This document shows, piece by piece, positions 1,441-23,293 of a DNA stretch of 64,000 nucleotides. The position numbers and the translations under genes are program-made. Positions within the stretch are counted from its first letter, which is position 1. Every line of letters starts with the position of its first letter. Location of the stretch: assembly GCA_018238155.1 (NCBI GenBank), contig JABCTZ010000046.1:64001-128000 (forward strand), in the 5' to 3' direction. The notes beneath the pieces were generated by a model. It was given only the letters and a program-made list of their open reading frames with translations, made no database searches and had not been told where the DNA came from. Source of the DNA: Candidatus Heimdallarchaeota archaeon. GTDB lineage: Archaea; Asgardarchaeota; Heimdallarchaeia; JABLTI01.

Positions 1441-2703
1441 CTAAAATAACACTTCTAATGTAAGATTATTTTCTGAAAAATATCTCAATACTCGAGATAA
1501 TAATTTTGGATTCACATCTTCTATAATGCTGATGATAAGTGAAATCTCACCTTCTGAGGAATTATCTAGAAATTGTTGAACTAATTCTTTGTCAGGTAAA
1601 CTCAATAGAAACAAATCAGAGAGCTGATTGACTCTTTCAATCAAGTGATTTATTTGATCACTAATTAGTTGTATCGCTTTGGAATTTTTTAACCCTAAAA
1701 TAGACTTGGATAATTTTGAGCAGAACTGATTTATTACTCCACCAAAAATTTTCCCTCGAGTAAAATCTATTACAATTTTACTGCTAATTGACAGGTGTTG
1801 AAGAGAGGACATCATATCTTCTGTACAATAATCAAGAACATGATTTGAAGCAGGATATTTTTCCATATCTATTAACTCATAAAAAGTTTCATCCAATATA
1901 CCCAGTACATGGATTATTGTATCTTCAGCAGATTTTGAAAATAATGCTTCTGCATCAGTAATTGGTACAGACCATGGATCACTATAGGTTTCTTTGTGTG
2001 GGAGGAATTCTCTCAGAGTTGCTATAGTTATCATAATTTCTTCTTTTGAACCTACAACTAAAATTCGTTCATTTTTTAGTAGTGCGTGTATAATTCTATC
2101 CATGCAAGTAGGAATTTTTCTAAATAAAAAGTCAAAGTCTGCTTCGTGTTCTATCACATGGGGAACTTCTTCATTACAGGATGAACTAGATACCAAATCA
2201 TTTTCAATTCTTTGCTTAATTAATGCTGTTGATTCAGTTGGATCTCTTGTAGAACTATCCAAAACTTCCATTCGGAGAAGTTTAGACAGACGATGTTTTA
2301 TTTGATCAGGTAGCTGATCCTTTGGATCTCCTTGTGTTAACAGGTCATTTGCAATTTCCTTTACAGATGTAGAGATATTCGGAATGGATTTAAAGAGTGA
2401 CATTTGCTCTGATCGATCAACTAAAGTCACTATCCCTAAAGTCCTTTTTCCACCTCTAGCAGTTTCATCATCTACAAAAAAGAAGGTTGAATAAGCAACA
2501 TAGCCTTCATCTACAAATGGAATAACAGATTCAACAAAATCTTCGTGAATAATACCTGTTTCTGTTGTAAGAGATAATGTACTTAGATGAGATTTCATTG
2601 ATACCTTTTCAGCAAACCTAGTATCCAATCCTTCTGAATATAAGCAACCAGGACCAAATTTATCATCAAATCTAATTAAACAGACGCCACGTTTATTCGA
2701 CAG
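1441..2703 (-). CDS. folliculin/SMCR8-like longin-DENN domain protein
   Basis: The frame stays open 25 codons upstream of the tracked TTG (2628), to a CTG at 2703 preceded by GTGGGGT. This adds VCLIRFDDKFGP, a uDENN/longin beta1-beta2 motif. Also has TFFFVDDETARGGKR (FLCN-like) and ALLKNERILVVG (cDENN-like). Confidence 0.72.
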   Translation of the reverse strand: MSNKRGVCLIRFDDKFGPGCLYSEGLDTRFAEKVSMKSHLSTLSLTTETGIIHEDFVESVIPFVDEGYVAYSTFFFVDDETARGGKRTLGIVTLVDRSEQMSLFKSIPNISTSVKEIANDLLTQGDPKDQLPDQIKHRLSKLLRMEVLDSSTRDPTESTALIKQRIENDLVSSSSCNEEVPHVIEHEADFDFLFRKIPTCMDRIIHALLKNERILVVGSKEEIMITIATLREFLPHKETYSDPWSVPITDAEALFSKSAEDTIIHVLGILDETFYELIDMEKYPASNHVLDYCTEDMMSSLQHLSISSKIVIDFTRGKIFGGVINQFCSKLSKSILGLKNSKAIQLISDQINHLIERVNQLSDLFLLSLPDKELVQQFLDNSSEGEISLIISIIEDVNPKLLSRVLRYFSENNLTLEVLF

Positions 2704-20729: not shown

Positions 20730-21086
20730 TTACTTATCTTCATTTTCAGATTTTTCTAATACTTTTTCTATATTATATTTGCAACTTAAGTCACTGATAG
20801 TTCTTCTAAATTGGAAGAATCGAATTGTACCAATTATTAGTATACCTATCCCAATTGTAATTAGAATCCAACCAAGGACAACCAAAATTAAAGTAGTTTC
20901 AATCAGCTTAATTAACCCAAATCCAACAGCAGCAAATGCTAATGCAGATCTTACATATGCTAGGAACGTTCTTTCATTTGCTAATGCAGTTCTATCTGCA
21001 GCGAGATGATCACGCATTATTAATTCATCTTTCTTCACACTATATACTGATTTATGTTCCGTTTTCCGCTTGTTAGATTTCTTCAT
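20730..21086 (-). CDS. DUF202 (YidH-like) membrane protein
   Basis: RDHLAADRTALANERTFLAYVRSAL followed by TM helices. Confidence 0.9.
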   Translation of the reverse strand: MKKSNKRKTEHKSVYSVKKDELIMRDHLAADRTALANERTFLAYVRSALAFAAVGFGLIKLIETTLILVVLGWILITIGIGILIIGTIRFFQFRRTISDLSCKYNIEKVLEKSENEDK

Positions 21087-21331
21087 ATCAGTTGACCTTC
21101 AATAGTTATTTTAACATTAACATTAAAAATTTTTACTTTATATTTGATGTGAAACAATCATTTCTGTGTTTATGTAATAATTTTGTTACAAGCCCATTCA
21201 ATGGAAATGGAGGTAAGTTAGTTTTTAACTAGTTCATGTTAATTTTACAAGCAAAAAATGCCGATTAAGAGTGAAAGTTTCTTCTTTGATGTTATTAAAA
21301 CCTATTTTAAAGATAAAGCCTATAATTAAAT

Positions 21332-21494
21332 TGGCGAAGAAAAAGCCTCCGAAAAAGACTAACGATATCTTTAGGATTGAGATAGATATCGGGTAGGATT
21401 TCCGAAGGATAAAGACCACGACAGAATATTGCAAAACTCTTCAATCTATTGGGTCTGCAAAACGCTTGAAATGGTCGTTTTTTCGCCATTTTTT
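21332..21494 (+). ncRNA. putative structured non-coding RNA (~160 nt, three-way junction), family unknown
   Basis: 11-bp closing helix 21332-21342/21478-21488 (one G-U on +). Nested stems 21346-21351/21403-21408, 21363-21370/21384-21391, 21414-21418/21472-21476 and 21422-21425/21454-21457. GC is higher than in the flanks. TTTTAAA lies ~25 nt upstream and a T6 tract follows directly. Confidence 0.5.
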
Positions 21495-21565
21495 ATGTAC
21501 AAAGTTTCAATAAATCTTCTACCAAATAAAATTATTACTCATTTGTTGGAAAATTGAAAAAGATT

Positions 21566-23293
21566 TCAAGCTAATTTTTTTAGCAATTCTTTAGAGGTCA
21601 GAGTATTCAAAATGTTCTTCTTTTCACACCAAGCTCTTCGAGCGATGTTTAATCCATAACCAATATTTTTTAGTTGTTGATGATTGTGGCTATCAGTTCC
21701 AATATAAAAATCAATCTTATTTTTAAAATCAAATACTACATTATCATCTACATCTAAGCGATTAGGGTTAGCATTTATTTCTAGAAATGTTTTCGTTTCA
21801 ATGCATTTTTCAATTATCTTAGAGAAATTTATTGAATATCCATCTCTTCTATCTAGTTGTCTTCCAGTTGGATGACCAATACCATTTACAAATTCATTGT
21901 CCATTGCAGTAATAATTCTCATAGTCATTTCCTCTTCGGACATATTGAAAATCGAATGAACGGATGCAATTACAAAATCTAAGTCTCTCAGTAATTTATT
22001 TGGAATGCTAAGTGAACCATCCTTTAGAATATCACATTCAACGCCTTGCAAAATTTCAACTGAAGAACTTTGGTTTATTTGTTCAATGGTTTTTCTTTGT
22101 TTAGCAATTTTTTCTTCGTTCATTGGATTATAGATTGGGTTCTTTCCGAAGTGATCTGTGATTATTAAATATTCATAATTTCTTTCTGTTGCTGTAAATG
22201 CTATTTCATCAATAGTAGATTTCCCGTCAGACCAGTTTGTATGAACATGAAAATCAGCTTTGATATCGTCTAGAGAAATTAAATCAGGTAAAGAATTCTT
22301 CTGCGCCAGCTCAATTTCTCCTCTATCTTCTCTAATATCCGGCGGAATAAAACTCATACCAATTGCCTTGTAAACTTCCTCTTCAGTTGTACTTGCAATG
22401 AGTGTTTTTCCTTCTTCATCAAATAAACCGTACTCATTCAAAAGTAAATTATTTCTATCTGCAATTGTTCGCAATTTTACAGTGTGATTTCTAGAACCGG
22501 TAGAATGGATTAAACCAGAACCACTAGATTGCTCTTTCAGGATTCTGAGGTCAACATTAATCCCATTAGTAAGTTTAACAGTTGTTTTAAGTGGACCTTT
22601 TACAACTATAACCTCTACACTATCCATTTGAGAGAAAATATCCATAATTAACTCAAAATCTTCTTCTTTTCCTATTGCATGTAAATCAATATCCCGTATT
22701 GTTGATTTTCTTCTTCTAATTGAACCGCCTATTTCTACACTTTGAATTTGATCTATTCCTTCAAGGAAGGTCTTTAAATTTAATGCAATTGGAATGACTT
22801 TGAAAAGAGGTCTCCGTTCCGATTTTACGAATGTTAATGCTCTAGTGATTTTAGCAATTTTTTTTTCAGTGAATCCAGGGAGTTCAGCTAATAACCCACT
22901 TTCGATTGCTTCTTCCAGATCGGTAATAGATTTAATGCCTAATTCTTTGTACAATTTGCCTGCTGTTTTACCACCAATGCCTTCAATTTTCATTAAACTT
23001 GTAACTTGGACAGGCACTTTTTGAGTTAATTTATCCAAATAGATTGTATTTCCATTTACTACTATCTCTTTTATTTTTTCGCTAATTGCATCACCAATAC
23101 CTGGTAATTCCTTAACTCGTTCTTCTTGAACAATAACTTCAATATCCTCTGCTGTTTGCTGTAAAGAATCAACTGCTTTTCGATAAGCCCTTATTTTATA
23201 GACGCTTTCACCAATAATTTCCAAAAGATCTGCTATTTGAGTTAGCTTTTCTATTACTAATTCATTTTTCATTGATATAAAACACTGCTCCAC
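21566..23293 (-). CDS. polX: DNA polymerase X with PHP domain
   Basis: AYRKA and HhH motifs, GSIRRRKSTIRDID, VDLR; PHP motifs HVHT.WSDG, TDH, GVECD, HPTGR, TDSH. Confidence 0.95.
   Translation of the reverse strand: MEQCFISMKNELVIEKLTQIADLLEIIGESVYKIRAYRKAVDSLQQTAEDIEVIVQEERVKELPGIGDAISEKIKEIVVNGNTIYLDKLTQKVPVQVTSLMKIEGIGGKTAGKLYKELGIKSITDLEEAIESGLLAELPGFTEKKIAKITRALTFVKSERRPLFKVIPIALNLKTFLEGIDQIQSVEIGGSIRRRKSTIRDIDLHAIGKEEDFELIMDIFSQMDSVEVIVVKGPLKTTVKLTNGINVDLRILKEQSSGSGLIHSTGSRNHTVKLRTIADRNNLLLNEYGLFDEEGKTLIASTTEEEVYKAIGMSFIPPDIREDRGEIELAQKNSLPDLISLDDIKADFHVHTNWSDGKSTIDEIAFTATERNYEYLIITDHFGKNPIYNPMNEEKIAKQRKTIEQINQSSSVEILQGVECDILKDGSLSIPNKLLRDLDFVIASVHSIFNMSEEEMTMRIITAMDNEFVNGIGHPTGRQLDRRDGYSINFSKIIEKCIETKTFLEINANPNRLDVDDNVVFDFKNKIDFYIGTDSHNHQQLKNIGYGLNIARRAWCEKKNILNTLTSKELLKKLA

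Follow-up and report, generated by a model that had tools for sequence, protein, structure and literature searches.

Here, a 479-bp gap between two minus-strand genes was analyzed in a window of 64,000 nucleotides of Heimdallarchaeota DNA (the window being the whole stretch that was studied). On one side lies a DUF202 gene (PF02656; positions 20730 to 21086, minus strand), with its start codon at 21086, and on the other a polX gene (21566 to 23293, minus strand) encoding pol-beta thumb, PHP, and HhH domains. The GC content is 0.33 to 0.37 over 21300 to 21499, compared with 0.21 to 0.27 in the flanks; this island is modest and equals the GC content of coding DNA. A first-pass annotation had singled out the gap as a possible site of an independent structured RNA, and the sequence features that it listed are all present: a TATA-like element about 25 nt upstream (TTTTAAAG, 21305 to 21312, about 25 nt before GGCG), ends that pair with each other (U21332 to A21342 with U21478 to A21488, including G21339·U21481), two multi-stem arms between these ends, and a final T6 run (21489 to 21494). 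No tRNA or tmRNA gene was found in the window with ARAGORN.

The RNA gene was placed at 21333 to 21494 on the plus strand. Its transcript would begin at about G21333 and stop within the T-run, giving a length of about 155 to 162 nt, with the two ends deduced from the distance to the TATA box and from the T-run. The window copy was matched by covariance models at 21330 to 21496 (168.6 bits with model R1 and 149 bits with model R2). DUF202 lies near the RNA in 9 of the 10 genomes of the genus. The RNA is not tied to its neighbors, since in two relatives (G004 and G005) an extra plus-strand gene separates DUF202 from it and polX is not adjacent, and since its paralogues adjoin unrelated genes; in another genome (G011), the neighbors are wholly different from DUF202 and polX. 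A same-strand gene 3' of the RNA was found at none of the copies, and polX converges on the window copy.

The polX gene itself has a distribution that suggests a patchy, transfer-prone history. The best relatives of its product come from two Heimdall metagenome-assembled genomes (86% to 89% identity), and the next ones reach only about 35% to 43% and are scattered among Aquificaceae, Micrarchaeota, Methanoperedens, Thermoplasmata, and others.

On the evidence given below, we put the probability at roughly 85% that 21333 to 21494 (plus strand) is a free-standing noncoding RNA gene of about 160 nt, with a TATA box, a T6 end, a three-way-junction fold, paralogues, kissing loops, and dedicated operators. 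The proposal of an independent gene and possibly a new class of noncoding RNA is thus supported, both by covarying homologues and by the lack of a match in Rfam 15. The first-pass annotation had missed the existence of paralogues, the contact between the two loops, the operators upstream, and a control region that begins at about 21225.

Fold of the RNA and its covariation

The overall shape is a three-way junction: two arms, each about 65 nt long and interrupted by conserved internal loops, extend from a closing helix. A covariance model was based on an alignment of 10 orthologues and a hand-checked structure; in this alignment, RNAalifold returned the closing helix and arm 2, as well as parts of arm 1, and showed compensatory changes in them. 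The closing helix P1 (11 bp, one G·U) joins the 5' strand UGGCGAAGAAA (21332 to 21342) to the 3' strand UUUUUUCGCCA (21478 to 21488). Across the family, pairing is kept in 95.5% of its cells and both sides have changed in 4 of 10 pairs, with variants such as GGCGAAUAG/CUAUUCGCC and GGUGAAGAG/UUCUUCACC among the copies.

The junction strand J1/2 (21343 to 21345) is the AAG of a conserved rAAAGC and is invariant or nearly so in all 24 copies. It is followed by arm 1 (21346 to 21408), which opens with P2a (CCUCCG, 21346 to 21351, with CGAAGG, 21403 to 21408) and a short extension (A21353 to A21355 with U21399 to U21401). Beyond an internal loop come P2b (CUA, 21359 to 21361, with UAG, 21394 to 21396), P2c (21363 to 21370 with 21384 to 21391), and the apical Loop 1 (21371 to 21383). 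Both-sided changes were seen in 8 of 9 pairs of P2a and its extension and in all 10 pairs of P2b and P2c, where, for example, GAUAUC/GAUAUC is replaced by ACAACA/UGUUGU or CACUGU/ACAGUG.

The second junction strand, J2/3 (AUAAA, 21409 to 21413), belongs to a conserved A-A-AAGAC, the family's most conserved unpaired block. Arm 2 (21414 to 21476) comprises P3 (GACCA, 21414 to 21418, with UGGUC, 21472 to 21476), a 2-bp helix (A21423-G21424 with C21465-U21466), conserved internal loops (AAUA and AACG), P4 (21429 to 21434 plus 21436 to 21439 with 21451 to 21454 plus 21455 to 21460), and the apical Loop 2 (21440 to 21450). P3 has 96.8% of its cells paired and compensatory changes in 3 of 5 pairs; for P4, the figures are 96% and 10 of 10. 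All helices, P1 included, are maintained by compensatory changes in the 24 homologues. Across the three groups of copies, conservation falls on the junction strands (rAAAGC and A-A-AAGAC) and on the arm 2 internal loops (AAUA facing GAC), and the helices and apical loops vary freely provided that pairing stays.

When single sequences were folded, the z score against shuffles was -2.4 on the plus strand and -3.4 on the minus strand. A single-sequence fold is modestly better than shuffles and cannot settle the matter; the comparative evidence is decisive. In an alignment of 25 rows (the 24 family members and one weak match that was later dropped as false), which was fitted to the model and is therefore biased toward the modeled structure, 92.7% of paired cells were canonical, compared with 68.3% in shuffles (0 of 500 as high) and 38% to 47% with slid partners. 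About 60% of the positions lie in covarying helices, and 38 of 48 pairs were changed on both sides, with every helix contributing. Because this alignment leans toward the model, a model-free check was used to offset the bias: MAFFT and RNAalifold applied to 15 representative copies recovered P1, P2, P3, and P4; compensatory changes were seen in 26 of 39 pairs, and the covariation term was -8.2 kcal/mol.

The plus strand, which the first-pass annotation had preferred from a single G-U pair, is favored because G·U outnumbers A·C at paired positions (84 versus 18 cells) and because the TATA box and the T-run recur on this strand. Ten of the A·C cells trace to a single C·A that group A keeps in P2a; this mismatch would become G·U on the minus strand and so counts against the plus strand.

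The tips of the two arms are complementary as well. The segment GGAUUGA of Loop 1 (21374 to 21380, plus strand) is the complement of UCAAUCU in Loop 2 (21441 to 21447, plus strand), and complementarity is kept with altered sequence in other copies (GGAUUGG/UCAAUCC, GGGUAU/GUACCC, and AGGGUU/AACCCU), including the second genus (GAGAGA/UCUCUC). The mean best complement of the loops was 5.08, versus 3.96 ± 0.20 for shuffled loops (maximum of 4.60 in 300 shuffles), and it was 4.19 when loops were paired across different copies. The evidence is good, although not conclusive, and this pattern of exchange strongly indicates that the apical loops base-pair and would close the two arms into a "tuning-fork" Y.

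Paralogues, promoter, and operators

When related genomes were searched at the DNA level, 9 of 10 from the same genus proved to carry the element, as did a single genome of a second genus (72% to 93% identity). In the genome that gave no DNA match (G008), a covariance model revealed a copy truncated by the end of a contig. With the covariance models, two or three diverged paralogues per genome were detected in 12 of 12 genomes of the Heimdallarchaeia family f1, making 24 full copies in addition to those cut at contig ends. The homologues with covariation that the first-pass annotation had proposed to look for therefore exist. In the genome that carries the window (G000), the copies are the window copy of group A (C7:85330-85496, equal to window positions 21330 to 21496), a copy at C15:25794-25954, and a group C copy at C42:18499-18667. 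The window copy has the features of the family throughout, with P1, two arms, the rAAAGC and AAAGAC junction strands, a TATA box, a T-run, and an upstream palindrome.

Group B copies are flanked by a HEAT-repeat gene and by a converging gene for a pterin-binding enzyme, and group C copies lie between two paralogous GT4 glycosyltransferase genes. The second genus has a single copy of the A/C lineage, in G011 (C224:8410-8578, locus L042), and it likewise sits between two GT4 glycosyltransferase genes. Among the neighbors of the three paralogue groups, neither a shared theme nor an obvious DNA- or RNA-binding protein was found. The tree of copies has two old lineages, B versus A plus C; the G011 copy branches before the split of A and C, which means that two or more of the paralogues are older than the two genera. 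The GT4 location looks ancestral, in which case the group A copy of the window would be a duplicate that moved beside DUF202 and polX within the genus.

Outside the family, an R2 search of 71 other genomes of the class gave no credible match, and a search of a sample of 151 Asgard genomes gave credible matches only in the two f1 members included there. A match in G012 (25 bits) was rejected as a false positive that lies inside an amidotransferase-like coding region, and a match at L058 (20 bits) was treated as false.

For the promoter, the TATA box (21305 to 21312; TTTAAATA in relatives) keeps a fixed distance in groups A and B despite the varying flank; it is harder to discern in group C and the G011 copy. 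At the other end, the T6 run directly follows P1 and corresponds to an archaeal oligo-T termination signal; at least four T residues follow P1 in nearly all of the 24 copies, and the A/C-lineage copy of G011 has TTTCTT. In the alignment of homologues, sequence conservation ends shortly beyond the TATA box and the T-run. Just after the T-run of group B copies (e.g., L044, L045, and L051), there is a conserved tail, CGCCCCTTTTTGGTTATGGGG, which could be a small CCCC/GGGG hairpin or the end of the converging neighbor gene.

Further upstream, an 18-bp palindrome, TTAACTAGTTCATGTTAA, lies at 21225 to 21242, about 105 nt before the RNA start, with one mismatch to the consensus TTAACA-N6-TGTTAA. In nearly all genomes, group A and B copies have this distal site at -108 or -109 (with 3 flank bases counted); in two of the three group C copies, it lies at -112 or -115. 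A second, proximal site is degenerate in the window (21278 to 21295); its right half TGTTAT (21290 to 21295) alone is kept, and the site ends about 10 nt before the TATA box. In group B, the proximal site is a full TTAACA-N6-TGTTAT at about -52 to -55, and group A has the right half alone. The two sites are spaced by 53 to 54 bp, about five helical turns.

A matrix search of G000 gave five matches of at least 17 in the whole genome, the best three being the three RNA genes. Exact matches to the palindrome in this genome (4.08 Mb) numbered two only, the distal sites of the B and C copies, against 2.0 expected by composition. Position and conservation strongly indicate that the palindromes are predicted binding sites of a dimeric transcription factor largely dedicated to the RNA genes, which implies that expression of the RNA would be regulated rather than constitutive. 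Their location upstream of the TATA box would fit activation. Neither the further operator sites of G000 nor the neighboring genes led to a transcription factor for the palindrome.

Only two of the G000 matrix matches of at least 17 lie outside the RNA genes. An operator-like site, AAATTAACACTTTCATGTAAATAA, was seen at C1:11154-11177 of G000 (about 1655 to 1678 of locus L067), in the divergent gap between a gene for a 247-aa protein with a phosphoribosyltransferase domain and a class-V aminotransferase gene. It is kept in G000 and G009 only, with a variant in G007, and is absent from eight other orthologous loci, so that it is probably a chance occurrence or a recent gain. The phosphoribosyltransferase-domain gene was considered as the factor or as a member of the regulon and was set aside as unsupported, given that the site is not kept in those eight loci.

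Known families and rival readings

The proposed Rfam scan was run, and no family was matched: at gathering thresholds, Rfam 15 gave 0 matches in the whole window, and a permissive scan of 21050 to 21620 (E ≤ 10) returned noise only, with CsrB scoring highest (14.4 bits; threshold, 71 bits). No published description of this RNA was found in the literature on Asgard and Heimdall noncoding RNAs. The first-pass annotation had recognized fragments reminiscent of c-di-GMP-I riboswitches and of RNase P RNA without claiming membership, and this caution was justified. The c-di-GMP-I model (RF01051) matched neither the window at gathering thresholds nor 21050 to 21620 at E ≤ 10, and the RNA does not fit a riboswitch leader, with no plus-strand gene downstream and polX converging. 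Archaeal RNase P RNA (RF00373) and archaeal SRP RNA (RF01857) likewise had no match on the element, and G000 has its own genes for them on other contigs, at C24:104036-104373 (125.5 bits) and C41:47065-47371 (115.4 bits), respectively. Conversely, R2 with filters off scored below 10 bits on the RNase P RNA, SRP RNA, and 5S loci of G000.

Other small RNA classes were rejected on motifs. For a box C/D or H/ACA sRNA, UGAUGA occurs in group B alone, inside arm 2, and on inspection a CUGA partner, a conserved ACA, and a K-turn with a 3-nt bulge were absent; snoRNA scores were at noise level and located in the flanks. For a Y RNA of a Ro particle, PF05731 (TROVE) is absent from G000 (90.7% complete), and no Rfam Y RNA was matched. 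When the alignment was inspected by eye, no K-turn, loop E, hammerhead core, or bulge-helix-bulge was conserved over the three groups.

Among known prokaryotes, the Asgard archaea are the nearest relatives of eukaryotes, and to our knowledge almost nothing is known of their noncoding RNAs beyond rRNA, tRNA, RNase P RNA, and SRP RNA. Here, a strongly supported structured RNA family without a catalogued relative is described, with several paralogues and apparent operators of its own; its operator architecture, the explicit exclusion of a 5S identity, and its paralogue history are new. Its reach is limited, as the family is confined to one taxonomic family. Current Rfam-based annotation evidently leaves real RNA genes unannotated in Heimdall genomes. 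In addition, the RNA is a well-defined experimental object, with a precise fold, and its promoter motif and the RNA itself can serve as baits for the factor and the partner, respectively.

As to its function, the RNA may act in trans, with the folded core as a binding platform for a protein or a small ligand. The core is favored as the functional surface because conservation sits in the junction strands and internal loops and no accessible seed is conserved. On this pattern of conservation, a regulatory or scaffold RNA of a ribonucleoprotein, working through its folded core and not by antisense pairing, is a reading toward which we lean at somewhat less than even odds. A more specific proposal is a lineage-specific circuit, in which a dedicated palindrome-binding factor would switch on two or three paralogous Y-shaped RNAs, each of which would bind a protein or metabolite in trans through its conserved junction pocket. 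We regard this circuit as tentative and rather doubtful. If true, it would amount to a free-standing "riboswitch without an mRNA" or to a sequestering RNA of the 6S or 7SK kind, and such regulation is not known to have been described in Archaea.

Alternatively, the RNA could be a trans-acting base-pairing sRNA of the Qrr or RyhB kind, with mRNAs recognized through pairing by a single-stranded segment and the fold needed only for stability. The two or three paralogues with a common factor-controlled promoter layout would suit such a role, and multicopy bacterial regulatory sRNAs such as Qrr1-5 resemble this combination. Group A also carries an anti-Shine-Dalgarno-like CCUCC (21346 to 21350). 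However, this segment is tied up in the P2a helix, and group B has CUAUU or CUAAU in its place. The conserved unpaired bases form short A-rich junction strands rather than a seed of at least 8 nt, and so large a share of the positions in covarying helices (about 60%) also speaks against this reading. We therefore consider a base-pairing sRNA unlikely.

Equally unlikely, in our estimate, is a ribozyme or an RNA that senses a small molecule. Purine-riboswitch aptamers and hammerhead ribozymes do share the architecture, in that a closing helix carries two arms with a covarying loop-loop complement and conservation is highest in the junction strands. Against this, no riboswitch or ribozyme model of Rfam was matched even at E ≤ 10, the arms are three times longer than those of the aptamers, and inspection of the alignment revealed no hammerhead core (CUGAUGA...GAAA). 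Nor is there a same-strand gene downstream to be controlled, the next genes converging on the RNA.

A cis-regulatory element read from the minus strand, as the leader of the DUF202 mRNA or the tail of the polX mRNA, is already largely refuted and very improbable. The slightly better minus-strand fold of the single sequence, the C·A of P2a, and the presence of DUF202 nearby in most of the genus would be explained by it, but the excess of G·U over A·C and the conserved TATA box and T-run belong to the plus strand. Moreover, the gene order in G004 and G005 and the unrelated contexts of the paralogues do not accord with an element that serves either neighbor.

An enlarged and diverged 5S rRNA of this lineage deserved attention, since RF00001 finds no 5S gene in G000 or in 11 other f1 genomes and the RNA, which is Y-shaped and multicopy and has a closing helix, occurs in all 12 genomes. 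We give it almost no chance. It is rejected because G000 has a separate permuted locus with 5S motifs (C21, about 212090 to 212250), with the same layout in other families of the class, and R2 has no match to that locus. In addition, paired arm tips are incompatible with the extended shape of 5S rRNA, the RNA is confined to one taxonomic family whereas 5S rRNA is universal, and the paralogues have diverged far more than 5S copies of one genome would. A CCGAA-like string in group A is part of a paired strand and is missing from groups B and C.

The permuted locus is of interest in its own right as a circularly permuted 5S rRNA gene (L087, about 1520 to 1685, plus strand; also L083, 1500 to 1680, and L082, 1440 to 1680, minus strand). 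The normal 3' two-thirds (…CCGGAAGUUAAGCC…GAGAG…CGGGAAC…) precedes the normal 5' third (GCGGUCAAAGC…CCCGGAAAU), a short loop joins the parts at the usual end of helix I, and the flanks are able to pair. RF00001 gives just two adjacent weak matches on it (17.5 and 16.6 bits), and none of 31 genomes of the class yields a 5S gene that passes the threshold of this model.

A 60-aa minus-strand protein (21307 to 21489), open in G000 with an ATG start, can be dismissed, as stops or frameshifts interrupt the reading frame in G009 (93% identical DNA), G001 (92%), G004, G005, and others, and substitutions track base pairs and not the codons that the first-pass annotation had named as the competing explanation of conservation; no other conserved reading frame crosses the RNA element in the homologue alignment.

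Comparison with known systems

With 5S rRNA, the RNA shares a three-way junction, a helix I that joins the ends, and two arms with internal loops; it differs in that its arm tips pair and in that loop C and loop E motifs are not conserved over the paralogues. The Alu domain of SRP RNA, in which helices 2 to 4 carry the L2/L1.2 loop-loop pairs, is also similar in layout: two hairpins follow a closing helix, and a G-rich first loop pairs with a C-rich second loop in the same order. In contrast to that domain, the RNA has no model match and much longer arms, and no U-turn motif was seen.

In genetic organization, the closest parallels come from bacteria, where RsmX/Y/Z (with a GacA upstream site) and Qrr1-5 (with LuxO) are multicopy regulatory RNAs under a transcription factor. 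As in those systems, several diverged paralogues share a common upstream palindrome and stand alone amid unrelated genes. The RNA comes from another domain of life, however, and is preceded by a TATA-box promoter. Unlike RsmX/Y/Z, its paralogues have no conserved repeated GGA loop motifs, and the CsrB score is noise; compared with the Qrr RNAs, it is far more structured.

In shape, the purine (RF00167) and TPP (RF00059) riboswitches are the best comparison, as the RNA has, like them, a closing helix, side-by-side arms, paired apical loops, and conservation at the junction. It thus has the architecture of the tuning-fork aptamers, a three-way junction with arms joined loop to loop, and the likeness is one of architecture only, as no sequence or covariance-model match to them exists. 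A purine-riboswitch expression platform was not seen, the RNA having neither an Rfam match nor a downstream gene to control. The arms also differ, being about 65 nt each with conserved internal loops. Finally, the tuning-fork aptamers are mRNA leaders, whereas this archaeal RNA is a multicopy, free-standing gene with its own promoter and terminator.
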